Assembly (NCBI GenBank): GCA_020632195.1
Contig: JACKGA010000001.1
Span: 45,673 to 109,672, forward strand
Reading direction: 5' to 3'
Length of the DNA stretch: 64,000 nucleotides
Origin: Candidatus Nomurabacteria bacterium
GTDB lineage: Bacteria > Patescibacteriota > Minisyncoccia > Phycocordibacterales > UBA1006
The translations under genes were made by a program, and so were the position numbers. The notes below the pieces were generated by a model. That model did no database searches. It was not told the origin of the DNA and saw only the letters and a program-made list of their open reading frames with translations. Below are positions 317 to 57,514 of the stretch, one piece after another (the stretch's first letter is position 1; each line of letters opens with the position of its first letter).

Positions 317-347
317 AGGAGGATTTTAACATACAAACCTGATTCTG

Positions 348-375
348 TGTCATCCCCGCGGGGGCGTGGATCCAT
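348..375. repeat. Hairpin repeat copy a (TGTC ATCC-stem-loop-stem-GGAT CCA family)
   Basis: tgtcatccccgcgggggcgtggatcca: the conserved TGTCATCC and GGATCCA flanks around a GC stem, lying just upstream of the helicase start. Confidence 0.55.
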
Positions 376-904: not shown

Positions 905-953
905 TGGATCCAAGATATTTTCTCCGCTTTGCTACGAAAATTCTAGGATGACA
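905..953. repeat. Hairpin repeat copy b (long-loop variant)
   Basis: tggatccaaga-[tattttctccgctttgctacgaaaat]-tctaggatgaca. The flanks TGG ATCC ... GGAT GACA are present and the loop carries the CTCCGCTTTGCTAC motif. The sequence is near-identical to the copy at 12275..12323. Confidence 0.65.
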
Positions 954-979
954 CAGATGAGAGTGTATACGCTTTCTTG

Positions 980-1737: not shown

Positions 1738-4700
1738 CTATGATCCGCCAAAAATATCTTTCATGGCTTTCCCGAGATTACGTCCCGCTTGCTGTCCTCC
1801 AGGAATCCTTCGAAAAATATCTTCTGGACCATCTACCATCACGCCTGATTGGTCGGCAACTGGCGTACTTTCACCAGGATTTCCCCCGAAGCTTATTTGG
1901 GTATCTTGAAGGACAGGACCATCTACTCCAATAGTTATGGTTGGTTTAATACTTGCATTCGGATTAGGAATCGTCCTCCCTCCTTTGAAAGTAGTGTTTG
2001 GATTCACATCGGCATGGTTATATGCAGAAGCATCAGGGCTTTTGTAGGTACTATAGCCTTGCCCCGCTTGTGCTACATTCTGGTCACCATAAAATTGCCC
2101 TTGATTATGGAGATATTGTGTCTGATCGAGATGATTGGTTGGCAATGGCCCGCCTGTTTTGATAACCGTTGTGTTGGGAATATTTTGTGGAGTCGCAGCA
2201 TCGAGTTCAGACTGTGGGTAGCGACTCATGTCGCCTTTACTTACGGGGTCTTGGTTAAGCTCGGGGACGCTCTGTGTATGGACACCATCACCCGTACTCC
2301 CTTTAAAATTTGGACCACTTGTATTTTGACCTATCGTCTGTGGCTGATACGTATGCCCCTGCGTAGGTTCTGCGATAGGAATATCGTGATGACTAGATGG
2401 TCCTGGTGTGATATCTACCACTGGTGGATTGGACTGGGGAGGCACTTGTACTTCTGCCACAGGAGGTTGCTGAAATACGGCCTCGTGAGAAACCACAGGA
2501 TCAACATCTACTGGAGTGATAGACTTATGACCAATCACCTCAACTTCAGGGAGCGTTCCGCCATCAATCGTAGCAATAGGAGCGGGACGGTTAAAATCTG
2601 GACGCATGTCGCGCATGTCTGCACGCGAGAGATCAGGTCCTGATGAGGTCAAACTGTGAGCAGTCATACCTCCACCCATAGCCCCCAACATCGTCAGGAT
2701 CAAACGTGCTCGCCAACGACGCACATCTCCACGCTGGATGCGTTCTACTTCTCGCTGGAAGGTAAGGCTATCGATTTCTTTATGAGCGAACTGTTTACTG
2801 AGCTGCTCGATACGACTACGTCCCTCAGCTTTTTGAGCATCCTCTTCAAATTTCATTTTTTTCTGAGTTGCAACGGCAGCTTTGTAATACATATCCTCAT
2901 CAGGATGATAGTCTTTTTCCTTGGTGCGAGCCATATATTCACGATCTTTCAAAGCCCAATCCTGTGCTTTTTGTTTTGCTTTCTGTTGCTGTAAACGAAT
3001 CAATTCCTCGTCATGAAGGTTCATGTTTATTTGGGTGCGTGACTCATTTCCAATGAGATTTTTGATTGATTCATTTTTAGTTACCAAGTTGGCGAAACGA
3101 CTACTTGCGAGACGTCGCGTAATCATGCCGCCAGCAAAGCCACCAAGGTACCCTGGGATATTCAACCCAAACAAAGCTGCGGAAGTCGTATACATCCCCG
3201 CAACCGCAAGCCATGCACCCCCTTGTTTGATCAGACGTGCTTTTTTAGGGTCTTCTTTTTCGAGTTTTGCAAATTTTGCTTGAAGAGTATTCTCGATTTT
3301 GCCATACCAGGTCTCGGCACGCTGTTGACGTAGGGTTTCGCTCCGTACTTCACGCGCAATTCTCTGTTGGTCATAGATAGCGGTAATCCCTACATAACGA
3401 TTTTTGAGTCGTTCGGCTACTTCTTTTTTACGATCTTCGCTCCATCCTTCTTTGTCTTTCAGAAGATGCATGTAGTAATTATTTTTTTCTTGCCCTGCTT
3501 CACGGCGGTATTTTTGATACGCTTCCATGGTTTTGGGAGACATATCTTGCTGTTCGAGCTTGTCGCCTTCCCCACGCCCAAACCAAATACGATTCTTCAA
3601 GCGATGAAAAAAGCCTTGCTGTTGTACTTCTTCTTTGTATTTGGCACGGAAGTCTTCACGTAGTGCTTGCGTACGCTCATGGATATTTTTGTCTTCAAAA
3701 CGCTGTGGCACGGTGAAAGAAATACGTCCTTCTTGAATCAGTCCGCTCAATTCATCATTGATATCAACACGGGTCCGTCTCCCGCCAAAAGAAACCCACA
3801 TGCCATCATCAGACATGGATTCGATTGCGAACTCCTGTCCACGGTAATTCATAACCGGCTTTTCCCCTGCTTTAAATGCATCGCGTACGACAACAGTATC
3901 AGTGGTAGTCAGGTTTTCTGTAACAATCTTTTTGTCTTCAGTAGTTTGAGGCGCTAGTTCTTTTTCTTGCATATCAATTTCTTGTACTTGATTTTCCTCA
4001 AAATGTGGATTCACCGAGCCCACGTGTTCAAGCTTATCTTTCGATATTGCATACGTACGATTACTTCCTGCGGGAGCAACGTTCACAAATCCTTTTTCGA
4101 CATCATCACGATTACCTTCGTAGAGAAGATTCCCCTTTTCGTCTTTAAAAACACGTTGTACGCGTGCAATCTTGTCTGAACCAATAGCATATGTTGGTCC
4201 CGTACCGTCAATAGACTGGACACTCGTATTGCCTTCTTCCATATCATCTCGTGGTACTTCCACCAAGCCGGTATTCTTTTCAAGATGGCGAAAATGCCGA
4301 GGTTCGAGGTTGCTAGAAGGAGAAGGAATGTTTTCTTTTTTATTTTCCACATCTTCTTTGCTCTCGTGTTCTTGTTGGGAGAGATTGCTTCCTATTCCGC
4401 CAAAATCAAGGTCACCTGGTCCAGCCGAGACCCATTCTGGCTGTTCGTAGTCTAGAGGTTGGCTGTCTTCTTGCCCCCCTTCGACAAGACTTTCTTCCTG
4501 AGACAGCGAAGTATTTTCTTTATTTTTCTGTAATTCTTTTTGGATTTTCAACTTGAGCTCCCGCTGGTGCCGTAAGAAATCAGCATCATTATTGATATAG
4601 TTGAGATCTGTTTGAGCAGAATCATACACGGTTTTGGCTGTTGTTTGCTCTTGTGCTTGTGGATGGCTTTCATTCTGATCGGTATTCACACCCAAAGAAG

Positions 4701-5352
4701 CATCATAGAGTGCCCCCATAAGCTTCTGTGCTGCTTGGTCATCAGCTTTTTCTTTTGATTTTTGATATGTTTCATATGCTGACGATGGTACATACTCGGC
4801 GCTTTGCTTTTCAGCATTTTTTTGAGACCATTGCAGACCCTTTTTTGGAAGTGTTCCTGTATAAGATTTATATCCTTTTGGAACTTTGGGCTGCGTATCA
4901 TTCTCTTGTGTCATCTTTTCATTAAATCTCTTCTGAGGAAAATCAGCTGCGAGATTTTCTCCTTGTTGACGAGCAACATAGCCGAGAATAGAGTTCAGAG
5001 AGACTTCGCCCGCGCGAGTCGTTTTGATCCCCGCTTTGTCTTTGAGAAATTGAGTAAGGATTGGTCGATCTTCTTTTGAGAGAATATTTTTAGACTCCAC
5101 AAACTCACGCCACTGACCAAACGTGGGCTTTTGGTGGTATCGCCCATATTGTTCCATGAACTCTTGAAATGCTTTATCAATTTTCTTGAAAGCTTCAGGC
5201 GGGGTTTTGCGATTAGTATCTTTTAATTCTAAATTTGTATTGGTAGATTGCTCTCTATGAGAAGGTTCTGGGTCATCTCCTAAAATAGTAGAAAAAACTT
5301 TTTTAATTTCTTCCTGATTTTTTGAATTGTTTATAGCGTCGCCAAGATTCAT
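1738..5352 (-). CDS. large hypothetical membrane protein (1204 aa, two predicted transmembrane segments, Q/N/T/P-rich, coiled-coil)
   Basis: Uninterrupted 3.6-kb ORF. Hydrophobic segments GGAWLAVAGMYTTSAALFGLNIPGYLGGFAGGMIT and WRARLILTMLGAMGGGMTAHSL. The C-terminal region is Gly/Pro/Asn/Gln-rich and of low complexity. No catalytic motif recognised. Confidence 0.7.
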   Translation of the reverse strand: MNLGDAINNSKNQEEIKKVFSTILGDDPEPSHREQSTNTNLELKDTNRKTPPEAFKKIDKAFQEFMEQYGRYHQKPTFGQWREFVESKNILSKEDRPILTQFLKDKAGIKTTRAGEVSLNSILGYVARQQGENLAADFPQKRFNEKMTQENDTQPKVPKGYKSYTGTLPKKGLQWSQKNAEKQSAEYVPSSAYETYQKSKEKADDQAAQKLMGALYDASLGVNTDQNESHPQAQEQTTAKTVYDSAQTDLNYINNDADFLRHQRELKLKIQKELQKNKENTSLSQEESLVEGGQEDSQPLDYEQPEWVSAGPGDLDFGGIGSNLSQQEHESKEDVENKKENIPSPSSNLEPRHFRHLEKNTGLVEVPRDDMEEGNTSVQSIDGTGPTYAIGSDKIARVQRVFKDEKGNLLYEGNRDDVEKGFVNVAPAGSNRTYAISKDKLEHVGSVNPHFEENQVQEIDMQEKELAPQTTEDKKIVTENLTTTDTVVVRDAFKAGEKPVMNYRGQEFAIESMSDDGMWVSFGGRRTRVDINDELSGLIQEGRISFTVPQRFEDKNIHERTQALREDFRAKYKEEVQQQGFFHRLKNRIWFGRGEGDKLEQQDMSPKTMEAYQKYRREAGQEKNNYYMHLLKDKEGWSEDRKKEVAERLKNRYVGITAIYDQQRIAREVRSETLRQQRAETWYGKIENTLQAKFAKLEKEDPKKARLIKQGGAWLAVAGMYTTSAALFGLNIPGYLGGFAGGMITRRLASSRFANLVTKNESIKNLIGNESRTQINMNLHDEELIRLQQQKAKQKAQDWALKDREYMARTKEKDYHPDEDMYYKAAVATQKKMKFEEDAQKAEGRSRIEQLSKQFAHKEIDSLTFQREVERIQRGDVRRWRARLILTMLGAMGGGMTAHSLTSSGPDLSRADMRDMRPDFNRPAPIATIDGGTLPEVEVIGHKSITPVDVDPVVSHEAVFQQPPVAEVQVPPQSNPPVVDITPGPSSHHDIPIAEPTQGHTYQPQTIGQNTSGPNFKGSTGDGVHTQSVPELNQDPVSKGDMSRYPQSELDAATPQNIPNTTVIKTGGPLPTNHLDQTQYLHNQGQFYGDQNVAQAGQGYSTYKSPDASAYNHADVNPNTTFKGGRTIPNPNASIKPTITIGVDGPVLQDTQISFGGNPGESTPVADQSGVMVDGPEDIFRRIPGGQQAGRNLGKAMKDIFGGS

Positions 5353-8347: not shown

Positions 8348-8764
8348 ATGAAAAAAGAAAACGAATTCTCAATCCCCAAAAGATCAGTATGGGCATTGAT
8401 ATGTACTCTTGTACTGGGAGTATTTATATACTTTCAAGCAAAGTATTACATAATTCCTGGGTTTCAGGAAATTTTTAATGAAAAAGACCCCACACTAGAA
8501 GCAGTCATGCGACTGATGTGGGTACCCATACTGGCGTACTGTATGATCTCTGCAGGTCTAGTATCCATCTTTAGTATATTTACGAAACTAAAAAAATATA
8601 AAGAGGAGGGGCTTATTGCTGGGCTTATTGCTGGGCTTATTGCTGGGCTTATTGGCGGGCTTACTTGGGGGCTTATTGGCGGGCTTACTTGGGGGCTTAT
8701 TGGCGGGCTTGTTATTGGGCTTGTTATTGGGCTTATTGCTGGGCTTATTGCTGAAAAAAATTAA
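8348..8764 (+). CDS. small membrane protein with a C-terminal (G-L-x-x)12 glycine-zipper repeat
   Basis: N-terminal transmembrane segments, then GLIAGLIAGLIAGLIGGLTWGLIGGLTWGLIGGLVIGLVIGLIAGLIA, encoded by twelve tandem 12-nt units. Confidence 0.55.
   Translation: MKKENEFSIPKRSVWALICTLVLGVFIYFQAKYYIIPGFQEIFNEKDPTLEAVMRLMWVPILAYCMISAGLVSIFSIFTKLKKYKEEGLIAGLIAGLIAGLIGGLTWGLIGGLTWGLIGGLVIGLVIGLIAGLIAEKN
8609..8752 (+). repeat. 12 x 12-nt in-frame tandem repeat (gggcttattgct and variants)
   Basis: Direct reading of the sequence: the units are gggcttattgct x3, gggcttattggc, gggcttacttgg, gggcttattggc, gggcttacttgg, gggcttattggc, gggcttgttatt x2 and gggcttattgct x2. Confidence 0.9.
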
Positions 8765-8854
8765 TGAGGGAAAAAAATATTGATGTGCCTTACGCTAATG
8801 TGTAGGGCACTTTTTCTTGCGCCAATCCTTCTTTCCATGTACACTCGCCTCCAT

Positions 8855-12274: not shown

Positions 12275-12323
12275 TGGATCCCAGATATTTTCTCCACGTT
12301 GCTTTGAAAATTCTGGGATGACA
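12275..12323. repeat. Hairpin repeat copy c (long-loop variant)
   Basis: tggatcccaga-[tattttctccacgttgctttgaaaat]-tctgggatgaca, a near-duplicate of copy b at 905..953. Confidence 0.65.
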
Positions 12324-12595
12324 CATCTGGGAGAAGAATTTAAAAACCATATCTTCCCTGTGTAGGCAGAGATCCCGTACAACATAGCCACGTGATATAA
12401 TCCAAGCATATGCATTCAAACCTAGCAAAAAATATTCAAGAGAAATATATTGAATATACAGCTGATTGGATTTTATTTGAAGAAATAAAAAAGAAACACA
12501 ATCTCTCAAGCTTAATCATTTGATTCCCTTGCAATCTCTCTCCCCACCCTTACAATACAACCATTACTATTTCTGATTAATTTCTCTATAATTTT

Positions 12596-33440: not shown

Positions 33441-33710
33441 ATGGGAATTTTTGATTCACTCAAAGGAATGTTGGGAGGAACTACTGAAAAAGTAATGAAC
33501 ACTGCAAAAAATGCTGCTGATGATATGATTGATTCTGTCGGTGACAAAGTCGAAGCGGCAACAGGCCTTGGGGGCAAAATGATTGATAACTTGCAAGACA
33601 AGGCGAAAGACCTCGCCCACGATGCAATAGAAAAAGCTGCTGATACGCTCGGCGATGCTGCTGATGCATTGGGCAAAAAGGCAGATGAAATGGAAGAAGA
33701 AAACAAATAA
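33441..33710 (+). CDS. small alpha-helical hypothetical protein (89 aa; stress-protein-like low complexity)
   Basis: Repetitive A/D/K-rich helical sequence. An intrinsic terminator follows immediately. Confidence 0.5.
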   Translation: MGIFDSLKGMLGGTTEKVMNTAKNAADDMIDSVGDKVEAATGLGGKMIDNLQDKAKDLAHDAIEKAADTLGDAADALGKKADEMEEENK

Positions 33711-33725
33711 TTTCTTTCAACAAAG

Positions 33726-33755
33726 AAACTCCCAACTGAAAAGTGGGAGTTTTTA
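33726..33755 (+). terminator. Rho-independent terminator
   Basis: aaactccca-actgaaaag-tgggagttttt. Confidence 0.65.
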
Positions 33756-33884
33756 TGTGCTTTCAAGCTCTGTTGTACGCCACAACACGAACCCTGCTCT
33801 GTGTGTCATCCCAGATAGAGCGACGAGATACGATGAGCGAAAGCCTGAGAGCCATCATTAGTTATATTTCTGACTTAGAATGAA

Positions 33885-33995
33885 GAACCCCGATGCAGAG
33901 CAGTCGGGGTATCTTTTTGGGTTCGCTCATTGCTCACTCTATGTTTTATTCCGAGGCAGAGCCTCGGGGAATATCACCGAGAAGATTGAAGATGA
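33885..33995. repeat. ~105-nt structured repeat, copy X1
   Basis: About 85 percent identical to 47655..47765. It contains the hairpins ccccga-tgcagagcag-tcgggg, ccgagg-cagag-cctcgg and ctcgg-ggaatatcac-cgag. Confidence 0.7.
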
Positions 33996-34017
33996 ACGTA
34001 CTCTAGAAAATTTAAAA

Positions 34018-34044
34018 TGGATCCCTGTTTTCGCAGGGATGACA
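34018..34044. repeat. Hairpin repeat copy e
   Basis: tggatccctg-ttttcg-cagggatgaca, directly downstream of the polA stop. Confidence 0.65.
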
Positions 34045-34074
34045 CAGATGAGAGTTTCGTGTATACGACTTACT

Positions 34075-36483
34075 CTACTTAACCTCGAACCAATTTTTTC
34101 CTACACCATAATCAACCTTGATCGGCAATGCGGGAGTAATATCGATCCAATCTTGGTCGAATGCGGATTGCATAAGCTTCACCAACTCTGGAACGACTTC
34201 TTCTATCTTTTCATCTTTGATTTCAAAAACAATTTCATCATGGACCTGCATGACCATCTTTACCTCCGTTTCAAGTTTATGCTTGGTAATCCATTGATCG
34301 ATTTGATGCATGACAAGCTTGATCAGGTCTGCCTCGGTCCCCTGGATTGGAGCATTGATCGCCATGCGTTCTGCCATAGCACGAATGAAGGGGAGCTTTG
34401 AGGTAATATTACTAAAAAATCGCTTACGGCCAAACATCGTTTCGGTATAACCATGCGTGCGGGCAAATTCTTTGGTATCTTCGAGATACTTGGTAATCGC
34501 AGGAAACTGTTCAAAATAGGCATTGTAAAAAGATTGAGCTTCTTTGCGATCAGTGCCAAGCTGTTTTTGCAAAGCAGTCACTCCCATACCGTAGAGCATG
34601 CCAAAGTTGATAATTTTTGCCCGGCGACGTTGTTCATAATCGATATCTTCTGGATTCACCCCAAACACGCGCGCTGCAACCGCCGCATGAATATCTCCCC
34701 CCTCATTAAAAACACGGGTCATGTATTCATCCTGTGAGAGCATCGCTGCAATACGTAATTCAATTTGCGAGTAATCACAAGCTACGAGTGAGTATCCAGG
34801 AGCTGCGATAAATGCCTTTCGAATCACACGTCCCTGCTCTGATCGAATTGGAATATTCTGTAAGTTTGGATTTTGGGAGGCAAAGCGCCCAGTCACCGTC
34901 CCATCTTGCAAGAGTTCAGAATGGAGCCGTCCATCATCACCGATATGGTCTGCAAGAGGTTCCAGATAGGTCGAGACGAGCTTGTGGAGCTCGCGATACT
35001 CAAGGAGATCTTTGATAATCGCGTGCTCATCGTAGAGCTTTTCGAGAATTGACTCTTTGGTCGAGTACCCGCCCGCTTTTGTTTTTTTAACACCTTTCGT
35101 TGGCAGTCCAAGCTCTTCAAAAAGCACTTCGGATAGTTGCTGGGTCGATCGTACATTGAATTCGTGTCCTGCATGGGTATGGATTTTTTGCTCGAGCTTT
35201 TCGAGAGTTTTTGAATATTCCTGCGCCAAATCAGAAAGTACTTTTCTATCGATCATGACGCCCGTCTCTTGTATTTTCTTCATCAGTGGAAGAAGTGGTT
35301 CTTCAATCTTCGTAAAGACTTTCAACAGATTCATTTCTGTGAGTTTTTTTACCAGTGCTTTTTCTGCTTCCTCTGCGGTAGTCACTCCCATGTGCTCAAA
35401 TACTTCTTCTGCGGTTGGGTGCGTGGTTTCGGGATTCATTACCCATAGCATAACTCCCAAGCGACGGGCTGTGTCTGGACTAAGAGCGTCGGCTGGTTGA
35501 GCCGACGCGGCTTCTTCTGATTGGCCATCGGCAGCCGCGCCGGCTCCCTGTGTAGACTCAGCAAACAACCCTTCAATCCGTGGAACGAGGCTACGGAATT
35601 GATACCGTCGACACATTTCTAATAGGCGGTCTTTGTTCAGCGAATCAATCCAAGTGTCAGAAGGAAATGAGTAGGTTATGGGAGCATCGAGACGAATCGT
35701 CGCGAGCCCTTTAGAAAAAAGAGCCTCCGCCTCATGTTCTTCCAAAAGCTTCACAATGCGTTCTTTTACGCCGTCATCGATGAGCTGTTGTCGATTGGTA
35801 TGAATATGTTCGTAGAGGTTCTCAAGTGATCCATAGAGCACGAGTAGTTGCGTAGCTGTTTTCTCACCAATACCTTTTATTCCAATAATATTATCTGAAG
35901 TATCTCCCCGCAAGCCTTTGTAATCTGTGAGAAGTTCTGGCCCAAAACCAAAACGATCCATGACCGCTTGTTCGTTGTAAATGATGGTATCCTTTATCCC
36001 TTTCCGCAACGTAAAGACACGCACACGATCGCCAGTGATCAACTGCATCAAATCCATATCACCTGTTGCAATAACGATATCAATATCTTGATACTCTTTA
36101 TGTGAAATAACTTGCTCTACAATCGTCCCCACCATATCATCAGCCTCAAATCCTGGAGCGTCAAAAATAGGGATATTGAAAGCTTCGCATACCCCACGCG
36201 ATGATTGCAGTTGATGCTTGAGCGCATCTTCAGTTTCTTTGCGTCCACCTTTATAGTCGGCATACGCTTCATGACGAAAAGTCTTGCCGGGCAGATCATA
36301 GGCAGCCGCGATATAGTCAGGCTTGAATTCTTTTACAACACCCAACAGCATGGTAATCAGACCGAACAAAGCACCTGTTGGCTCTCCATCGGCATTAGAA
36401 AAGTCGGGAAGCGCGTGATACGCACGGTGAATAATCGCGTGAGCATCTAGAAGCACAAGGGTTTCATGAGATGTTTTCTTCAT
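34075..36483 (-). CDS. polA: DNA polymerase I (compact, ~802 aa)
   Basis: The 5'-3' exonuclease N-terminus is MKKTSHETLVLLDAHAIIHRAYHALP. Family A polymerase motifs include RRRAKIINFGMLYGMG and QVHDEIVFE. The start is taken at the internal ATG. Confidence 0.95.
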   Translation of the reverse strand: MKKTSHETLVLLDAHAIIHRAYHALPDFSNADGEPTGALFGLITMLLGVVKEFKPDYIAAAYDLPGKTFRHEAYADYKGGRKETEDALKHQLQSSRGVCEAFNIPIFDAPGFEADDMVGTIVEQVISHKEYQDIDIVIATGDMDLMQLITGDRVRVFTLRKGIKDTIIYNEQAVMDRFGFGPELLTDYKGLRGDTSDNIIGIKGIGEKTATQLLVLYGSLENLYEHIHTNRQQLIDDGVKERIVKLLEEHEAEALFSKGLATIRLDAPITYSFPSDTWIDSLNKDRLLEMCRRYQFRSLVPRIEGLFAESTQGAGAAADGQSEEAASAQPADALSPDTARRLGVMLWVMNPETTHPTAEEVFEHMGVTTAEEAEKALVKKLTEMNLLKVFTKIEEPLLPLMKKIQETGVMIDRKVLSDLAQEYSKTLEKLEQKIHTHAGHEFNVRSTQQLSEVLFEELGLPTKGVKKTKAGGYSTKESILEKLYDEHAIIKDLLEYRELHKLVSTYLEPLADHIGDDGRLHSELLQDGTVTGRFASQNPNLQNIPIRSEQGRVIRKAFIAAPGYSLVACDYSQIELRIAAMLSQDEYMTRVFNEGGDIHAAVAARVFGVNPEDIDYEQRRRAKIINFGMLYGMGVTALQKQLGTDRKEAQSFYNAYFEQFPAITKYLEDTKEFARTHGYTETMFGRKRFFSNITSKLPFIRAMAERMAINAPIQGTEADLIKLVMHQIDQWITKHKLETEVKMVMQVHDEIVFEIKDEKIEEVVPELVKLMQSAFDQDWIDITPALPIKVDYGVGKNWFEVK

Positions 36484-36595
36484 AAAATAATTGTAACACA
36501 CCTACGTATTAAATAATCTGATTTTTGGCAACAAATTTTTTTAAACGCCCCCTCGCCAAACCTAAATGAGCTCAGTGTTTCACAAAAAATAATTA

Positions 36596-38011
36596 TTATG
36601 CTGTTTCATTCATGATCCTAATTACAAATTCTTTTTTTAGGGTCATGAAGAATACAGAGATATTTAAAGTATTTAGACTAGAGTCATCACTTTGATCCAG
36701 TACTTCGAGAGCTTTTTCGTACATCTCTTCAGTAAATTCACTCTGGTAATCCCAAATACCAAGTTGTTCCAGCTCATAGATGGCACCACGTTTATATGCC
36801 TGAATTTCAGTAGGGTCAGAATAATACTCTCGTGCTTTTAAAAGCGCTTCGCTATTGATTTCAGAAGTTCCTGACTGGACTTGTATTTGTAAATTATCCC
36901 AAAATACATTATTGATACCCTCTTGATAGAGTGACAGGGCGTGGGGAGTAATCAAATTTTGAGATACTAATGTTTCCTCGTTTCCAAAAAGATCATCGAC
37001 ATCAACAGATTCATGATCAAATTCATGGGCCGCTACCCCCTCATAGTCTAAAGTCTTTTCATAAGGTAAATGGGTTACCCCCTCTGTTGGGAATCGAACT
37101 GCTTCATTATTAACCCAGGAGCCGCCCTGTCCTTCCGTGGGGTTATAATATGCGAACGCACCATCATCTGAGTCCTCTAGAATGTCCTGATTCATATCAA
37201 GCTGATAGGTTTTATCAGACAAATTTAAAAGTCGCTTTTGGCTATAGAATGTTTCCATCCCAACCATATTCGATTGCGCCAACTCATTGGCTAAACGTGC
37301 TTGATAGGCAGGAGTCATGATCTGATCCTTTGACCAAGCACGCACATCATCATATTGTTTTTTTATCATCTGGTATTCTTCCAAAGCATCAGGCCACAGA
37401 TCAGGGGTTTCATAAAGTTTCTGCCTGGATGGAATATCATTACCCAATGTATACATAGGATCTATTATATTGACCTCTTGCTTGTTCCACGCTGGGGAGT
37501 TGCTCATGAAATCGTAAGTGTCTTCTATACGTTTTTCTCTAACAGGTGCAAAAACAGGTGAGCCAAACTCACCAACAACCTCGTGGTAGAAATTTTTCGA
37601 ATTTTTTGTCATATCCGACCAGCTGGTGGAAATATCTTCAGAAGAGGTTGGTTGTTCTGGTGCAAGACTATTTTGACCAAAACTAGCAGTAGCTACGAAG
37701 AACATGGTCGTGAATACTACTCGCTTGGCAAGAGCATTGTAGTATTGCGTCAGGCTATGCGCCATATTATCAAAATGCCCTTTCAAGATTCCGATTTCTT
37801 GGCACTGCTGACGACTATATGTATCCTGATATATTTCAGCCCCCAGCATTCTAGACGTGAAGCCCTCAGCGCGCTTCTCAAGAGAACGGCTGAATACCTC
37901 AAGTGTTTCATCTTGCGATCTCGCAAGCTCCACTCCTTCTATCGATACCTCTGTGGCTTCTTGGGTATGAGTTTCTTTAGTCTGATATTGTTCGGATATA
38001 TTATTTTTCAT
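36596..38011 (-). CDS. hypothetical membrane-anchored protein with a large extracytoplasmic domain (471 aa); contains an HEFDH motif
   Basis: A cytoplasmic region of about 100 aa, the transmembrane segment VVFTTMFFVATASF, then an acidic domain of about 350 aa. VAAHEFDHES is HExxH-like, but the downstream context is atypical for a zincin. Confidence 0.6.
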   Translation of the reverse strand: MKNNISEQYQTKETHTQEATEVSIEGVELARSQDETLEVFSRSLEKRAEGFTSRMLGAEIYQDTYSRQQCQEIGILKGHFDNMAHSLTQYYNALAKRVVFTTMFFVATASFGQNSLAPEQPTSSEDISTSWSDMTKNSKNFYHEVVGEFGSPVFAPVREKRIEDTYDFMSNSPAWNKQEVNIIDPMYTLGNDIPSRQKLYETPDLWPDALEEYQMIKKQYDDVRAWSKDQIMTPAYQARLANELAQSNMVGMETFYSQKRLLNLSDKTYQLDMNQDILEDSDDGAFAYYNPTEGQGGSWVNNEAVRFPTEGVTHLPYEKTLDYEGVAAHEFDHESVDVDDLFGNEETLVSQNLITPHALSLYQEGINNVFWDNLQIQVQSGTSEINSEALLKAREYYSDPTEIQAYKRGAIYELEQLGIWDYQSEFTEEMYEKALEVLDQSDDSSLNTLNISVFFMTLKKEFVIRIMNETA

Positions 38012-38195: not shown

Positions 38196-38310
38196 AAAAA
38201 AATTATATCATAGAAAAACAAAAAACCCTCCCGCCTGCCTTTGCCGACAAATAGGGGGTTTTACGTTTTTTTGGCATGGAGCCATAATAGCACTAATCCC
38301 CTCTCTGCTG

Positions 38311-38337
38311 TGTCATCCCCGCGTAGGCGGGGACCCA
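38311..38337. repeat. Hairpin repeat copy f
   Basis: tgtcatccccgc-gtag-gcggggaccca, in the divergent intergenic region. Confidence 0.6.
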
Positions 38338-38408
38338 TCTCAATGTTTCCACTATCTCCTTTTTTGTCAGTCTGAATTTATTTTAGGATATATGATAAAA
38401 TTAAACAC

Positions 38409-39113
38409 GTGTTTAAGCCTCTAGAAAATTTCCAATCCAACCGAAACCCGAAGGAGATTATTCTGCGTGCCCTCAAAGAATCAGAGCAATATAAGATTAC
38501 TCCAGAAGATAAAAATGAGTATGGGGAACTTTTGGCATACCCAAATGGCCCAAAATCAAATCTTGAAAACGAACTTCATTGGAAAATGGTACGAACTGAG
38601 GCTTTTAAGGAGTGGTTTGGAGACTGGCAAAATAAACCAGATGAAGCGAGTAGAGTTATAGATAATAATGGAGAACCACTTATCGTTTATCATTCCTCTC
38701 ATGATTCATTTGATGAGTTTGATCCTCAAAAAAGTCAGTATTTTTTGACGCTTGGAAAAGGTTCTTATTTTACCCCCGATCCCTCTTTATCAGAAATATA
38801 TGGAGATAAAAGATATACATGTTTTTTAAATATTAAAAATAATATTTACAAACAAAAAGAGCGCTCGGCTCTTCAGAATGGACTAAGGAATGTATATTAT
38901 TCTCTTATTCGACCTAAAGAATCGGGCTTCATCGAGCCACACGATGAAAGTGAAATTCCAGAGAGAAAACTTTTTGGAGAAGTAAGTCAAGTTTGTGTGC
39001 TTCATAAAGAAGATATTGCGATCATACCAAGTGACATTGAGCATCCTATGGAAAAATATCGCGAAAAGATTGATGGTCACTTTAGAGAAAATGGATCAAG
39101 TCCTAATCTCTAA
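38409..39113 (+). CDS. hypothetical protein with PARP-like (H-Y-E class) ADP-ribosyltransferase-fold motifs
   Basis: EPLIVYHSSHDSFDEF resembles the PARP hydrophobic-H-G-S strand, TLGKGSYFTPDPSLSEIYG resembles the GKGIYFA Tyr motif, and an acidic residue sits in FGEVSQVCVLHKED. The ORF is intact, has lower GC than its neighbours, and is bounded by a hairpin repeat and a terminator. Confidence 0.55.
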   Translation: MFKPLENFQSNRNPKEIILRALKESEQYKITPEDKNEYGELLAYPNGPKSNLENELHWKMVRTEAFKEWFGDWQNKPDEASRVIDNNGEPLIVYHSSHDSFDEFDPQKSQYFLTLGKGSYFTPDPSLSEIYGDKRYTCFLNIKNNIYKQKERSALQNGLRNVYYSLIRPKESGFIEPHDESEIPERKLFGEVSQVCVLHKEDIAIIPSDIEHPMEKYREKIDGHFRENGSSPNL

Positions 39114-42555: not shown

Positions 42556-45336
42556 TTAGTTCTGTGATCCATCAAACGGAGCTGGGCGATACACTGTATA
42601 GTCTGGTGTATTGACTGCCTGTGGGGCAGCAGCATGTGCTTGTGGAAGGTTAGCCGGTGCCTGAGCTACAGGAGCTGGGGCATACATTGGCTGTACTGGG
42701 TGCATAGGCTGCATAGGCGCTGCAGGCATCATGTATTGTGGTTGGTGATACATAGGAGCCTGTGCGTATGCTGGCGCATATGCGTATCCATATGATGATC
42801 CTTCGGCACGCTTACCCTGTACATAGAAGTAACGAGCAGCGAGGAGAAGGAGAGCGAGGAGAAGAAGCGTAAGCAACCATCCCCATACACTCGTAAAGAA
42901 TCCTGAGAGAAATGCTGATGCAGATCCGAATCCGATAGCAGCATCATATACTTGGTCGAAGTCGAATTCGATAGCGGTGTCCTGAATACCATTACCGACA
43001 CCGTCACCACCGAGGTTTGCTTCTACGACGACTGCCTGTCCAATATTCGCACCTGGGCGTACACGAACAGTAATCATCATATCTCCCTTTTCTTCTGATT
43101 CAATATCACCAAGATCAATGATCACTGAATGTTCTGTTTTACCTGTATACGTACCACGAGTTGTTGAAAGAAATTCAAGTTCTTTTGCAAGTTTTACATC
43201 AAGGATTGCATCTTCGAAGTCTTGCTTACAGAGGTTTTCCCATTCAACTTCATATACCAATGTCTGTCCGCGGGTTACTCCTTCAACATTGTTGGTAAGG
43301 TTCAAAGCAATACATCCGAGACCAGAACCTGCTTCAAGAGTATTTGAGGTAATCGTTGTAGCAGTATTGGTGTTTACACGAGTAACGGTAGAGGTATTTG
43401 ATGAAACCGTAGAGATCACACGTCCAGGAGTACGGAATGATTCAAAGTCTCCGTATACTGGGATGCCGTTACAGTATCCGACAGCTCGTACATAGTAGGT
43501 CACTCCTGGAGTCAATCCAGAAATTGATTCACGCATGATTCCACTATTGTTTCCACGTGTGACAATACCTGTCGAAACATTCATATTTGAAGTACTGGTT
43601 CCTATCAAGAATTGAGTAGAGAAAGCGCTACAACCATTTGCATTGTATCCAGCGTTCAAAACAGCTGAAGTACCAGTCACTGATGATTCAGGAAGGGTTA
43701 CCACGATAGGATTTACTACTGAGTCAACACCATTGTTTCCTGGCTGGTCGATAGTCACAACTTGGTAGTCAGTATCAGTAACAAATTTTTCTACATCACC
43801 ACATTCCAATGTATCGTCATTATTTTCATCTTCGTACTCAACACAGATACGGAAGTAGTATGTTTCATTCGTATCAAGTCCAGTAACCGTTTTGCGGTAA
43901 TCTTCGTCACCATCAAGGTCGCTGTCAACTCTTACTTTACGGATGTCTTGCCCATCGTTGTCAACATCGCTATAGGTGTCGAAATCATTATCAACATCTT
44001 CAATGTCATTCTTGTTCTGTCCGTATACAAAGAATACAACACCGTTATCAAAGTCATTCATGTCTACTGAACCATTAAGTTTTGCAGAGTCTTCATCAAC
44101 ATCCTCGGCATCATCAGTATCAGCTTTTGGTTCATCATTATTATTGTGAGAACCAGAACTTACATCTACGGATACGTTATCACTTGCTGAAAGACCATAG
44201 TTGTTGGTACAAGTAATTTCAAAATTAGTATCTTCATTAAGTGAATAGGTGTCACTATTGCTTGATGTATAAATACCTGTTTTTCCATCGAAGTAACTCA
44301 AGTTTGGAGTTGCATCATAGATACAGTGATCAGCATTAGTAATTGTCCATGTCACTACTACATTGTCTCCTTCCTGAATAGTACTATCGTTCACAGTAAT
44401 ATCTACCGTTGGCGCAGTGCCCTGATTTCCTCCATTGCTTGTTACGGTAAGCTGGTGAGTATCCTGTACTGGCGTACCATCAAGTCCGATACAATTTGCA
44501 GTAAAGCTATAGGTACCAGCAGAAAGAACATATGAAGATGAGCCAGTAGTTCCAGAGTTGTTGTTCCATTGAGAAACAGTAGGAGAAGAAGTGAAAGTAC
44601 AAGTCGAAACATCATTAGAATTCCAAGAAACATTTGCAGAAGTACCTGCAGGCACTGTAGATGTCCCAGAGACATTTACTGATGGGTTGTAGGTAGGAGC
44701 AGGCGTGTCATTACCGATCTTGAAAATAGCAGTAATGTATACGTAATCACCAATACCGATAGGCTGATTGATATTTTGTCCTGAGCTACCAAACATAGCA
44801 GTGCTGGTAGAGAATGTCCCACTATCTACAGCATTCCCATTATCATAATATACTTCATGATATCGAATATAACTCACAGTCTGGTCTATTCCAGAAATAT
44901 CAAAACCAACTCCGTCATATTCTGTAGAACCTCCATTGTCAGAAAGAGTAACTCCAAAGTCTACTCCTGACTGTGCTGTAGAAGAATTAGGGTTAAAACC
45001 GGTCACCTTAAAGTTTGGACTGGTCATTACTTGGTTACCAATATTCTTCAGTTTGATACGTAGGTTGATAGTATCTCCGGCATTGGCAGTAATATCATTT
45101 TTATTCCAACACAATTCGTATTGGGAATTTGATACAACACCGTATCCACTCGTGTGGTTACCGATTTGGGCCAGAGCACATTCATTAGATGAGTTACCGG
45201 CATCTTGGTTATAACCCAAAGAGCCATTGGCAAACTGTCCCGCTGCAAATGCAGTCGAAACAGAAACCATAGCAATCGCAACGACAGCAAAGGCTGCAAC
45301 AGCGATATATGAGATTGTTTTCATAACGTTTTTCAT
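42556..45336 (-). CDS. large cell-surface protein (926 aa) with signal peptide, repeated beta-rich domains, C-terminal transmembrane anchor and Tyr/Pro/Ala-rich cytoplasmic tail
   Basis: N-terminal MKNVMKTISYIAVAAFAVVAIAMVSVSTAFA and multiple T/S/N-rich Ig-like segments. The C-terminal transmembrane segment FFTSVWGWLLTLLLLALLLLAA is followed by YGYAYAPAYAQAPMYHQPQYMMPAAPMQPMHPVQPMYAPAP. Confidence 0.7.
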   Translation of the reverse strand: MKNVMKTISYIAVAAFAVVAIAMVSVSTAFAAGQFANGSLGYNQDAGNSSNECALAQIGNHTSGYGVVSNSQYELCWNKNDITANAGDTINLRIKLKNIGNQVMTSPNFKVTGFNPNSSTAQSGVDFGVTLSDNGGSTEYDGVGFDISGIDQTVSYIRYHEVYYDNGNAVDSGTFSTSTAMFGSSGQNINQPIGIGDYVYITAIFKIGNDTPAPTYNPSVNVSGTSTVPAGTSANVSWNSNDVSTCTFTSSPTVSQWNNNSGTTGSSSYVLSAGTYSFTANCIGLDGTPVQDTHQLTVTSNGGNQGTAPTVDITVNDSTIQEGDNVVVTWTITNADHCIYDATPNLSYFDGKTGIYTSSNSDTYSLNEDTNFEITCTNNYGLSASDNVSVDVSSGSHNNNDEPKADTDDAEDVDEDSAKLNGSVDMNDFDNGVVFFVYGQNKNDIEDVDNDFDTYSDVDNDGQDIRKVRVDSDLDGDEDYRKTVTGLDTNETYYFRICVEYEDENNDDTLECGDVEKFVTDTDYQVVTIDQPGNNGVDSVVNPIVVTLPESSVTGTSAVLNAGYNANGCSAFSTQFLIGTSTSNMNVSTGIVTRGNNSGIMRESISGLTPGVTYYVRAVGYCNGIPVYGDFESFRTPGRVISTVSSNTSTVTRVNTNTATTITSNTLEAGSGLGCIALNLTNNVEGVTRGQTLVYEVEWENLCKQDFEDAILDVKLAKELEFLSTTRGTYTGKTEHSVIIDLGDIESEEKGDMMITVRVRPGANIGQAVVVEANLGGDGVGNGIQDTAIEFDFDQVYDAAIGFGSASAFLSGFFTSVWGWLLTLLLLALLLLAARYFYVQGKRAEGSSYGYAYAPAYAQAPMYHQPQYMMPAAPMQPMHPVQPMYAPAPVAQAPANLPQAHAAAPQAVNTPDYTVYRPAPFDGSQN

Positions 45337-46978: not shown

Positions 46979-47005
46979 TTTAAGTATCCTCTCATCATCT
47001 ACTCT

Positions 47006-47034
47006 TTGTCCTCCTGAACGTGTTTCAGGATCCA
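47006..47034. repeat. Hairpin repeat copy k2
   Basis: ttgtcctcctgaa-cgtgt-ttcaggatcca. Confidence 0.6.
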
Positions 47035-47124
47035 TGGTACTACAGATATTCTCGTGTCTATTGGGAATTCAGCTCATGGTATGAAATATCTTTTCTATCT
47101 CTTTGTTGAACTCTCTTGGATCTC

Positions 47125-47151
47125 TGGATCCCGATTGTCATCGGGATGACA
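47125..47151. repeat. Hairpin repeat copy g
   Basis: tggatcccga-ttgtca-tcgggatgaca. Confidence 0.65.
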
Positions 47152-47205
47152 AGCATTTGTTTGTTTTTAATTGGGTGTTTATAATCCTTCTATTATATTT
47201 ATGTT

Positions 47206-47614
47206 TGTCATCCTGACGCATGTCAGGATCCATACAACTCCAAAGATAATTTGATATACTAGGAATATTACCCATTATTGAAGACTGTGTAATATGAATC
47301 ATAGAGAATACTATGTATACATTATGTGCAACAAAGCTCGTGGCACCTTGTATATAGGCGTTACAAACAATATAGAAGTGCGCGTGCAACAACATCAACA
47401 AGGAAAAGGCAGTGTCTTTACTGCAAAATACCAACTCTATAGACTTGTATATTATGAATCCTTTCAATACATTGATCAGGCAATTATGAGAGAGAAGCAG
47501 CTTAAAAATTGGAGAAGACAATGGAAGATTAATCTTATCGAAGAATATAATCCAATATGGCGAGATCTCAGCTATGAATGGTTTTATGGATCCTGAAATA
47601 AATTCAGGATGACA
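47206..47614 (+). mobile_element. candidate compact mobile cassette: GIY-YIG nuclease gene flanked by 27-bp inverted hairpin repeats
   Basis: The left end is tgtcatcctgacgcatgtcaggatcca (47206..47232). The right end is tggatcctgaaataaattcaggatgaca (47587..47614). Its reverse complement matches the left end except in the loop. The ORF's stop codon lies inside the right repeat. Confidence 0.45.
47294..47596 (+). CDS. GIY-YIG nuclease superfamily protein (100 aa; COG2827/UPF0213-like)
   Basis: MNHREYYVYIMCNKARGTLYIGVTNNIEVRVQQHQQGKG...: GIY-YIG core (YVYIM..GTLYIGVTNN), conserved Arg, His-Gln-x-Gly and a distal Glu/Asn. The terminal codons gga tcc tga sit inside the hairpin repeat. Confidence 0.8.
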   Translation: MNHREYYVYIMCNKARGTLYIGVTNNIEVRVQQHQQGKGSVFTAKYQLYRLVYYESFQYIDQAIMREKQLKNWRRQWKINLIEEYNPIWRDLSYEWFYGS

Positions 47615-47654
47615 AATGAGAAGAATAATGTGTATTCCAAAATATACAGTAAGA

Positions 47655-47765
47655 CTGGAGAAACAACCTCGATGCAAAGCAGTCGAGGTATATTATTGAG
47701 TTCTCTACTTGCTCACTTCTTGTTTTATTCCGAGGCAGAGACTCGAGGAATATCATCGAGAAGAT
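47655..47765. repeat. ~105-nt structured repeat, copy X2
   Basis: Aligns base-for-base with 33885..33995, with compensatory stem changes (cctcga...tcgagg versus ccccga...tcgggg). Confidence 0.7.
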
Positions 47766-47796
47766 TAAACATAAGCTAAAAGCATAAAGTAAAAAA

Positions 47797-47856: not shown

Positions 47857-48432
47857 CTATTTTAGCGAAATCCACTCGAGCGGACACCACTGCCTATTCT
47901 GCTGATACCAGCGATCATAGGTGGGACGCGTATTGAATGCAAAACTCGCCTGTAAAAAAAATTTTGCCCCGTTTACCACAATGGTGGCCTTAGGGTTAGA
48001 TCCTCCCATATAGTAGCCCTGATTACCATAGTAGTAATGATACGGGCTGTAATATCGGTAGCCATACTGTTGGTTGTAGTATGGATACACAATATACGGT
48101 GCAACAGGCACTACATTCGTATTACTATTGTTATTGTTGTTGTAATAGTAATAGTTATTTGTAGTTGTGCTTGGAGTCACTGCTTGATTCCCAGGATTAT
48201 AATAAACATCATCATAATGTTTATTATCTCCATGTGAATCGTCAGAAGACTCTTCATCTTCTCGCCCCGGGCAATCCCAACAATCCTCTACAGAATAATC
48301 ATCCACAGTGGGAGGATTAGTCGTAGGAATAGATATCGTAGATGCTACTGGAATTCCATTAGCATTATACGAAACCTGTGCTTGGGCAATTCCTGCGCAC
48401 AGTAAAAATAATACAAAAAATATATATCTCAT
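47857..48432 (-). CDS. secreted Tyr/Asn-rich low-complexity protein (191 aa)
   Basis: Signal peptide MRYIFFVLFLLCAGIAQAQ, then YYYYNNNNNSN and YYSPYHYYYGNQGYY tracts. Confidence 0.5.
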   Translation of the reverse strand: MRYIFFVLFLLCAGIAQAQVSYNANGIPVASTISIPTTNPPTVDDYSVEDCWDCPGREDEESSDDSHGDNKHYDDVYYNPGNQAVTPSTTTNNYYYYNNNNNSNTNVVPVAPYIVYPYYNQQYGYRYYSPYHYYYGNQGYYMGGSNPKATIVVNGAKFFLQASFAFNTRPTYDRWYQQNRQWCPLEWISLK

Positions 48433-48563
48433 GTCTCATTGGTTTTTAGTTGTTAAAATAAAAAATATCATGAATATTAAACCATACTTTGATTAAAAAA
48501 GCAAGTTTTTAGAAAGGTCCGACCATCGATATCCCTAGAACTAGGTTTCGTATGGGGCGATTC

Positions 48564-48590
48564 TGGATCCCCGTTTTCACGGGGATGACA
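48564..48590. repeat. Hairpin repeat copy j
   Basis: tggatccccg-ttttca-cggggatgaca. Confidence 0.65.
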
Positions 48591-48684
48591 GGGGTTTGGG
48601 TTTACTATAAGAATCAAGTTTTTGCACAAACAAAAATACAGGCCCCAAAAGGTTCCTGTATTTTAGATGTAATTGTCAAAAATT

Positions 48685-57384: not shown

Positions 57385-57420
57385 TCCAAAGAATACCCCT
57401 ACGGCTCTGCCTCGGGGATT
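57385..57420. repeat. partial reverse-orientation copy of the X repeat
   Basis: ggctctgcctcgg is the reverse complement of the ccgaggcagagcc core of X1 and X2, and a gaattcgccctatgaattc hairpin lies adjacent. Confidence 0.4.
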
Positions 57421-57514
57421 CTTTATTTGAGATACAGGTTTTGTTTTCATTACTGATTGCACGACCATCTTAAGTACTCTTCCCCTATTACCCCCTTGCC
57501 TTTATACTACTGAC

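Follow-up and report, generated by a model that had tools for sequence, protein, structure and literature searches.

Introduction

Repetitive extragenic palindromic (REP) sequences are extragenic imperfect palindromes with a basal stem, a bulge, an apical stem and a short loop, and in bacterial interspersed mosaic elements (BIMEs) such hairpins are combined with spacers into mosaics of ~100 nt; roles in transcription termination and mRNA stabilisation have been proposed for them (PMC3733652; PMC6006769). For a 'long' REP hairpin, a working definition asks for 7 or more paired positions in the basal stem, followed by an optional bulge of 1-3 nt, a second stem and a loop of 2-5 nt (PMC6006769). 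Here, a pair of structured repeats, X1 and X2 (together referred to as X), is described in a stretch of 64,000 nt from Candidatus Nomurabacteria bacterium (GenBank assembly GCA_020632195.1, contig JACKGA010000001.1, positions 45,673 to 109,672 of the forward strand), which is called the window throughout. The host belongs to the candidate phyla radiation (CPR, Patescibacteria), for which little has been documented on REP-like elements and on the enzymes that mobilise them. With moderate confidence, X1 and X2 are interpreted as copies of one dispersed repeat, short and non-coding, of the REP, BIME or miniature inverted-repeat transposable element (MITE) kind.

The core of X is ~100 nt long, with an imperfect hairpin (H1) at its left edge and a second hairpin (H2) ~20 nt from its right edge. 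H1 and H2 are related and have the same orientation, both carry a GC-AGA-GC apex and a 3′ bulge, and the spacer between them is poorly conserved. As is typical of REPs, X is extragenic and lies between convergent (X1, X2) or, for a solitary module termed X3, co-directional genes, and as in BIMEs, hairpins and spacer are combined into a mosaic of ~100 nt, the stems of which are kept paired by compensatory change. The geometry of a REP hairpin was found for H1 in X1, X2 and the Flavobacterium copies described below. Unlike REPs and BIMEs, X has hairpins without a foot tag (GT[AG]G or CGTC) and in direct, not inverted, orientation, it is present at low copy number in the available sequence, and no gene was seen for a RAYT (REP-associated tyrosine transposase), the type of enzyme by which REPs and BIMEs are mobilised. 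Neither GT[AG]G nor CGTC/TGTC was found 0-2 nt from the foot of H1 or H2, where the flanks on both strands read GAAGA/TAT, AAGAT/TCTTC, TTTTA/TATCA and GATA/TAAAA. Because this tag is absent, X is not classified as a canonical REP.

Untagged REPs have been described for RAYT subclass 2.6, which occurs mostly in Bacteroidetes and is flanked by atypical REPs without the GTAG tag (Quentin et al. 2018, PMC6006769 supplementary table). The REP of Flexibacter litoralis reads GCTG-TCGCTTGGC-TCT-GCCGAGTGAC and has a variant with a TTT loop (PMC6006769). On its minus strand, X shares with this REP the GGC-TCT-GCC apex, the TCT and TTT loops, a stem of 9-11 bp and the lack of a tag, and the phylum of the subclass 2.6 hosts is the one to which most matches of H2 belong. 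There is no agreement in the remainder of the stem or in the GCTG foot, and the host of X is a CPR bacterium and not a member of the Bacteroidetes. The similarity, of 9 nt, may serve as a lead.

A third described group, the CGTC/TGTC-tagged REPs, has a stem starting with AT and a CCA tail; the five phyla listed for it do not include CPR (Di Nocera et al. 2013, PMC3733652). Hairpins of this type share intergenic clusters with X in the window, but differ from it in hairpin, tag and tail. Miniature elements of the IS200/IS605 family of insertion sequences (IS) resemble X in that they are ~100 nt long, carry hairpins near both ends on one strand and have no terminal inverted repeats. In contrast to these, X has flanking direct repeats, and neither a Y1 transposase nor a parent IS could be found for it.

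BOX, ERIC and Correia elements are structured intergenic repeats of ~100-150 nt that are co-transcribed with their neighbours and can terminate or stabilise transcripts. The pneumococcal BOX element is modular, as is X, and Neisseria Correia and enterobacterial ERIC elements have terminal inverted repeats or are long palindromes. None of them is known to be related to X in sequence.

Results and Discussion

Sequence, setting and hairpins of X1 and X2

Together with the flanking direct repeats, X1 and X2 occupy positions 33881..33992 and 47661..47771 of the window, respectively, both on the + strand, and their cores extend over ~33887-33986 and ~47666-47766. A covariance model (R1), built from X1, X2 and two Flavobacterium elements, scored them at 127.1 and 120.9 bits. 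In a blastn comparison, positions 33886-33987 and 47665-47766 were 85.294% identical across 102 nt (E 5.85e-19), in agreement with the initial annotation of this DNA, which had recognised two full copies of ~85% identity from the sequence. The similarity sets in only 3-5 nt upstream of H1. In a repeat search of the window, in which the pair was designated family D2, it could be extended to 136 nt at 78% identity. When the copies were aligned with MAFFT, 17 differences were counted over 104 aligned columns, of which 9 are transitions and 8 are transversions; five of the differences are in paired columns and ten at alignment columns 39-68, corresponding to the spacer.

Both copies are intergenic and lie between convergent genes. 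X1 is flanked by an 89-codon open reading frame (ORF; 33441-33710, + strand) and by polA (34075-36501, - strand), and X2 by a gene for a GIY-YIG nuclease (47294-47596, + strand) and an orphan ORF (47857-48432, - strand), and each copy lies ~90 nt past the stop codon of the minus-strand gene. PolA is 100% identical to H6776_00450, and its next-best matches are CPR PolA proteins. As had been noted before, the two copies stand beside other hairpin repeats and terminators: both are embedded in clusters of a second, commoner repeat of the TGTC-tagged type and adjoin terminator-like sites.

H1 of X1 (ACCCCGA-TGC-AGA-GCA-G-TCGGGGT; 33887..33910, + strand) begins ~2 nt from the boundary of X and consists of a 7-bp basal stem, a 1-nt 3′ bulge, a 3-bp apical stem and a 3-nt loop. 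It is flanked by AATGAAGA upstream and TATCTTTTTGG downstream and is terminator-like, with a folding energy as DNA of -9.2 kcal/mol (z -5.1). The corresponding hairpin of X2 (ACCTCGA-TGC-AAA-GCA-G-TCGAGGT; 47666..47689, + strand) is likewise terminator-like (DNA -8.2 kcal/mol, z -5.9), and H1 is very stable on either strand, whether folded as RNA or as DNA. H2 has stems of 4 bp and 5 bp, separated by a bulge of 2 nt, and a loop of 3 nt, and was located at 33949..33971 in X1 (+ strand; TTCC-GAGGC-AGA-GCCTC-GG-GGAA; DNA -8.0 kcal/mol, z -3.9) and at 47728..47750 in X2 (+ strand; TTCC-GAGGC-AGA-GACTC-GA-GGAA; DNA -3.9 kcal/mol, z -1.8). The module of X1 is the one shared exactly with Bacteroidota, and in X2 the apex is broken by a C-to-A change, which is the sole broken pair of the comparison. 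Both H1 and H2 have the AGA loop on the + strand. A third, alternative hairpin was found on the + strand at 33963..33981 in X1 (CTCGG-ggaatatca-CCGAG) and at 47742..47760 in X2 (CTCGA-ggaatatca-TCGAG), with one pair that covaries between the copies. Its 5′ arm is the 3′ arm of H2, so that the two cannot form together, and it is absent from the related Flavobacterium elements. The preservation of three hairpins, as proposed in the initial annotation, is to be qualified in this respect.

The compensatory changes given in the initial annotation are indeed present in H1 and in the third helix. In H1, CCCCGA/TCGGGG of X1 (33888-33893 / 33904-33909) is replaced by CCTCGA/TCGAGG in X2, and in hairpin 3, CTCGG/CCGAG (33963-33967 / 33977-33981) is replaced by CTCGA/TCGAG. 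When the 17 observed differences were scattered at random over the 104 aligned columns, at least two compensated double changes were obtained with P = 0.028, and the single broken pair observed compares with 5.2 expected (P = 0.014 for at most one by chance). The four covarying sites all belong to one motif, TCGR/YCGA, and are fully linked; they may therefore record one or two events and not two independent ones. When X1 and X2 are taken together with the two Flavobacterium copies, three of the ten pairs of H1 are compensated and 97.5% of the cells are paired. H2 is invariant in this set, yet was chosen by the search pattern itself. One Flavobacterium copy has a basal G-T pair in H1 that pairs on the + strand only. 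Stem preservation, the compensation statistics and the three compensated H1 pairs across phyla support selection on hairpin formation, as had been suggested for the two copies. Compensation by itself cannot separate selection at the RNA level from selection on DNA hairpins. For structure screens this means that two compensatory changes between two copies can mimic RNA covariation, as they are equally expected of DNA hairpins that are recognised by a transposase or act as terminators.

One explanation of these data is that X encodes a small RNA or functions in cis as a structured RNA, such as a 3′ untranslated region element of the minus-strand genes polA and ORF 47857-48432. The compensatory changes and the preserved stems would be expected of such an RNA, as would the G-T pair restricted to the + strand and the similar distance of ~90 nt from the stop codons of two minus-strand genes. 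In the minus-strand reading, the complement of H1 and then a T-rich tail form the end of the element, and its RNA folds are more stable than those of shuffled sequences (z -1.9 to -3.75). However, only the local hairpins are common to X1 and X2, the long-range helices of their minimum-energy folds differ, and the apex of H2 is broken in X2. The homology extends no more than 3-5 nt upstream of H1, and neither strand of X1 or X2 contains a promoter-like site. Rfam has no family that matches X: at the gathering score, Rfam 15 identified only two tRNAs in the whole window, and at E values up to 10 nothing credible was obtained around X1 or around the Flavobacterium element. A relation of X to tRNA or tmRNA was considered and none was found. 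Taken with the distribution of the relatives described below, an RNA function of X is considered quite improbable.

A protein-coding function of X was also considered and rejected. Two + frames are open in both copies, yet the 17 differences alter 10-15 of the ~36 codons, and in no reading frame of X is change biased towards synonymous positions. ORF 33880-34401 (173 codons), which starts in X1 and runs antisense into polA, has no Pfam match; its dismissal as an artefact of the repeat in the initial annotation is borne out, and X1 explains this spurious ORF.

Related units in Bacteroidota and metagenomes

The second hairpin (TTCCGAGGCAGAGCCTCGRGGAAT) recurs exactly in metagenome-assembled genomes (MAGs) of Bacteroidota and in metagenome contigs. 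An exact-pattern scan for H2 (TTCCGAGGCAGAGNCTCGNGGAA, 21 specified bases), for which ~0.3 chance matches are expected in 596 Gb, identified five places in three Bacteroidota MAGs (Cyclobacteriaceae, Flavobacteriaceae and Flavobacterium), and with a slightly shorter pattern 16 metagenome loci were found. Eleven of these 16 have a low-GC, non-coding context and comprise 8 distinct sequences, three each from two samples; the other five are high in GC and look like chance matches. The genes beside two of the low-GC loci encode type IX secretion sorting domains, which mark these two loci as Bacteroidota. The host genome of the window is absent from both collections scanned, genomes as well as metagenomes.

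In two of the MAGs, H2 is part of a bounded unit. Flavobacterium sp. ES-bin-45 (JACMLU01) contains two copies of a 138-nt unit (locus L005, 2215-2352, and locus L006, 2676-2813) that are 97% identical and have the same order as X: H1, GGTAT, spacer, TT, H2, AAT and a tail ending in GA(A/T)TAAA. A segmental duplication was rejected as the origin of these copies: the unit is inverted relative to the adjoining PLA1 paralogues, and its copies resemble one another more closely (97%) than the PLA1 genes, which are only 92% identical. The Cyclobacteriaceae MAG (CATQIH01) contains an 86-nt unit without H1 in two unrelated loci (L002, 5615-5700, and L004, 400-485), with 100% identity between them and a relative of 90% identity in a metagenome contig. 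When this unit is compared with that of Flavobacterium, H1 appears to be precisely absent between AATAAAAG and GTATTAA, which suggests that the hairpins may be separable modules. Lone H2 hairpins followed by T runs were found in five further contigs; in L013 and L017, hairpin and T run point away from the adjacent gene.

H2 is identical over ~24 nt between the CPR bacterium and Bacteroidota, and its GGC-AGA-GCC apex is also found in H1. The conserved objects are thus the hairpin modules, and the spacers are family-specific. The related Bacteroidota elements are found in both orientations and in 3′ and also 5′ regions, which argues against a function of X as an RNA.

Hairpins of the X type can be written as TTCCNAGGCAGAGCCTNGGAA, and X itself also contains CGAGAAGAT downstream of H2. 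Clusters of related hairpins were observed in metagenome contigs of 44-51% GC (L012, 650-790, with the same sequence in L015, and L021, 150-210). These hairpins, TTCCAAGGCAGAGCCTTGGAACGAG, TCCGAGGCAGAGCCTCGGGGA, CCCCAGGCTGGAGCCTGGGAACGAG and TTCCCACGCAGAGCATGGGAACGAG, are all followed by a CGAGAT tail, and a base in the middle of the stem varies with compensation. The clusters suggest a wider superfamily of hairpins with a GGCAGAGCC apex.

Turnover among relatives and flanking direct repeats

The region around polA was compared between the window and three related loci (L023-L025; PolA identity 82-84%), in which the intergenic DNA is unalignable and X is lacking. One of them (L025; PolA 82% identical) has a syntenic arrangement of polA, a small ORF and PEMT with an intergenic region of 408 nt; X1 is not present in this polA-to-PEMT region, which contains other repeats instead. 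In L024, polA is followed by 58 nt of intergenic DNA with a plain terminator. The absence of X1 from the syntenic locus points to turnover in this lineage, and it speaks against an RNA function as well. With no Rfam match, no internal promoter, long-range helices that are not shared and no syntenic conservation, the small RNA family offered as one option in the initial annotation finds little support. A search with R1 for further copies, which had been envisaged there, yielded the H1 half of X3 but otherwise no copies, neither in the window nor in five loci comprising the additional ~7 kb of this genome and the loci of the relatives.

Both copies are bracketed by short direct repeats. For X1, TGAAGA was found at 33881..33886 and 33987..33992 (+ strand), two identical hexamers 106 nt apart, and for X2, AAACA at 47661..47665 and 47767..47771 (+ strand), identical pentamers that are also 106 nt apart. 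In the window, exact matches of 6 nt at a spacing of 106 nt occur with a frequency of 3.3e-4, and the two positions that distinguish the repeat of X1 from that of X2 differ identically at the left and the right ends. Comparable brackets surround the relatives, namely AAAG/AAAG and AAAC/AAAC for the Flavobacterium copies and AAACTA for a lone H2 in L003; for the Cyclobacteriaceae copies, AAAG/AAAG fits in one and AAAG/AAAT, with one mismatch, in the other. Terminal inverted repeats were not seen by direct reading, as the left end (ACCCCGATGC...) is not matched by the reverse complement of the right end (ATCTTCTCGG...).

The direct repeats look like target-site duplications at an A-rich target. 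They overlap motifs that are conserved in the family (AATAAA to the left of H1 and GATTAAA at the right tip), and because of this overlap, and as no clean empty site was recovered for X, they are regarded as suggestive only. For the latter reason, too, mobility in this lineage is a matter that we infer.

Terminator-like properties and the solitary module X3

A G+C-rich stem-loop followed by a T tract, as in an intrinsic terminator, was found for H1 on the + strand of X1 and X2 and for X3 read on the + strand. With its flanks, H1 reads as an A-rich stretch, a hairpin and a T-rich stretch and thereby resembles a bidirectional terminator.

X3 is a solitary module of the H1 type, AAATAAAGAAT-CCCCGAGGCAGAGCCGTAGGGG-TATTCTTTGG, at 57388..57430 on the minus strand, opposite in orientation to X1 and X2, and lies between the co-directional genes yebC and ruvC. 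R1 matched it with 24.8 bits over the H1 half only, and blastn gave 25 nt at 88% identity with X (E 0.12), restricted to the H1 module and its flanks. The partial copy that had been annotated at 57385..57420 is therefore a real match, but it lies on the minus strand and is limited to H1 and its flanks. Read on the + strand, the hairpin of X3 is followed by ATTCTTTATT and lies 60 nt downstream of yebC, where it is terminator-like.

X might be two copies of a (bidirectional) intrinsic terminator with a single origin and a subsequent local duplication, without mobility of their own, in which the hairpins would persist only through the benefit of termination between convergent genes. Both full copies are placed between convergent genes, as such terminators would be, H1 of X1 and X2 is terminator-like, as is X3 behind yebC, and the lone H2 hairpins elsewhere are followed by T runs. 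On the other hand, both regions already have terminators of their own (33727-33755, a hairpin with a T run identified by direct reading, and 47831-47810), and H2 within X has no T tract. Termination does not need a fixed sequence, yet ~24 nt of H2 are identical across CPR and Bacteroidota and the apex is repeated in H1. In L013 and L017, hairpin and T run face away from the adjacent gene, and in Bacteroidota discrete units with 97-100% identity are found at unrelated loci. We therefore consider it unlikely that X consists of terminators only.

Mode of dispersal

A dispersed repeat of the REP, BIME or MITE kind is the explanation that accommodates most directly the bounded, near-identical units in Bacteroidota, the absence of X1 from the syntenic locus and the presence of direct repeats specific to each copy. 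For these reasons the structured MITE, named as the other option in the initial annotation, fits better than the small RNA. A classical MITE mobilised by a DDE transposase was rejected, as terminal inverted repeats are missing.

In the mechanism proposed here, the element or its hairpin modules would be copied to new intergenic sites by an enzyme that is supplied in trans and recognises the folded hairpins. The top candidate would be a single-strand-DNA HUH/Y1 enzyme of the RAYT or IS200/IS605 type, and the flanking direct repeats would leave room for a mechanism that duplicates an A-rich target. Once inserted, H1 with its A-rich and T-rich flanks would probably act as a bidirectional terminator or as a 3′-end stabiliser for read-through transcripts. 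Judged from the arrangement of the sequence, such an effect between convergent genes would likely be a consequence of insertion, and the lone H1 module X3 appears to have the same putative role behind yebC.

A more specific alternative is that X derives by decay from the two ends of an IS200/IS605 insertion sequence that has been deleted (resembling a palindrome-associated transposable element, PATE), with H1 derived from the left and H2 from the right end. This would account for the presence, on one strand, of related hairpins near both ends without terminal inverted repeats. Elements of this family insert 3′ of a fixed tetra- or pentanucleotide and do not duplicate the target site. AATAAA outside the left hairpin and GATTAAA at the right tip, which are kept across families, could then be the target and the right-end cleavage motif. 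X1 and X2 also share their orientation with respect to the inferred direction of replication, which is uninformative with three copies, and X3 has the opposite orientation. The ORFs of the window include neither tnpA nor tnpB, no longer element with these ends was found in the collections searched, and copy-specific direct repeats are not made by the IS200/IS605 family. The left hairpin of IS608 lies much farther from the element boundary than the ~2 nt observed for H1. An origin as an IS remnant is regarded as unlikely.

Several points weigh against a dispersed repeat. In the ~71 kb of the host genome that were covered (the 64-kb window and ~7 kb more, L026 and L027), two full copies and one partial copy were found, and the kind of element proposed is known for high copy number. 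Among the ~50 ORFs of the window, Pfam identified no transposase, Y1/HUH or TnpB protein, and at the other loci examined no transposase was identified by Pfam next to the hairpins. A full-length parent element was not found in genome, metagenome, viral, phage and plasmid collections, in searches that needed an exact H2 or similarity at the BLAST level. To the lack of a clean empty site it has to be added that part of the match between the direct repeats may be sequence of the element or reflect target preference. No known mechanism fits cleanly, because direct repeats are unexpected for transposition of the IS200/IS605 or RAYT type and the missing inverted repeats oppose a DDE-type MITE. Finally, the resemblance of X to the Flexibacter litoralis REP is confined to a 9-nt apex.

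A literature search with sequence strings of the element gave no relevant publication. The kind of element to which X belongs is well known, but the family itself has not been catalogued before, and as an element it is ordinary. What is unusual, and unexpected for a genome so reduced, is the presence in a CPR bacterium of a hairpin module that is identical to one of Flavobacteriia and Cytophagia. One could go further and regard the modules with the GGC-AGA-GCC apex as an undescribed mobile family of hairpins only, which spreads horizontally across the boundary between CPR and Bacteroidota, duplicates an A-rich target and has no inverted repeats, but to this extended version we assign a low probability. 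If it were true, it would imply either a new mechanism, in which a hairpin-recognising enzyme leaves flanking repeats, or transfer of DNA between CPR bacteria and Bacteroidota hosts. In the case of transfer between an episymbiotic CPR bacterium and a Bacteroidota host, the shared module of 24-25 nt could be a molecular hint to the host and point to ecological partners.

Neighbouring repeats and genes

The commoner hairpin repeat of the window has the form TGTC-ATCCC(N)...(N)GGGAT-CCA and fits the published description of the CGTC/TGTC-tagged REPs. Copies were found at 345-375 (-), 905-963 (+), 12275-12333 (+), 33790-33870 (-), 34017-34048 (+), 38308-38338 (-), 47005-47035 (-), 47123-47159 (+), 47203-47233 (-), 47586-47616 (+) and 48562-48598 (+). 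A short form of ~32 nt can be distinguished from a long form with a loop of ~30 nt (905-963, 12275-12333 and 33790-33870). The copies are clustered in few intergenic regions, and X1 lies between two of them that are in inverted orientation. X is a family separate from these TGTC-tagged hairpins. It flags intergenic 'junkyards' rich in repeats, in a CPR genome that is small and yet has at least two unrelated families of hairpin repeats.

A hairpin resembling the TGTC family (GTCATCC...GGATGAC) was also observed in the metagenome contig of L017 (823-904; 37% GC). An exact H2 with a T run follows ~35 nt past this hairpin, 6 nt beyond the stop codon of a primase-like gene. This contig may represent a second CPR-like genome with both repeat families.

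X2 and the GIY-YIG nuclease gene (100 codons, Pfam E 1.4e-17) are located in a repeat-rich stretch of 1.1 kb (46.9-47.8 kb), and the stop codon of this gene lies inside the TGTC-type repeat 47586-47616. The TGTC-type repeat 38308-38338 adjoins an ORF of 234 residues (38409-39113, +) with an ART-PolyVal domain (Pfam E 1.9e-10). No Pfam family was assigned to the minus-strand ORFs 47857-48432, 36596-38011, 42556-45336 and 1738-5352, which encode 191, 471, 926 and 1204 residues, respectively. For the first of these, the orphan neighbour of X2, no homologue besides itself was found among 5.8 billion proteins; the NCBI annotation of this ORF has 149 residues. A repeat of a different kind is present at 8585-8774 within ORF 8348-8764 (+), where ~15 units of a 12-nt tandem repeat similar to GGGCTTATTGCT encode a C-terminal (GLIA/GLIG/GLTW)n run of a predicted membrane protein of 138 residues.

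Shortly beyond the right end of the window lie the genes dnaA and dnaN, followed at a greater distance by rnpA and yidC (L027, 3129-5901, corresponding to ~64.5-67.3 kb in window coordinates). Over positions 1-64000 the skew is negative and the cumulative GC skew falls steadily. Because of the position of dnaA and dnaN and this steady fall, the window probably starts near the replication origin and is replicated from right to left.

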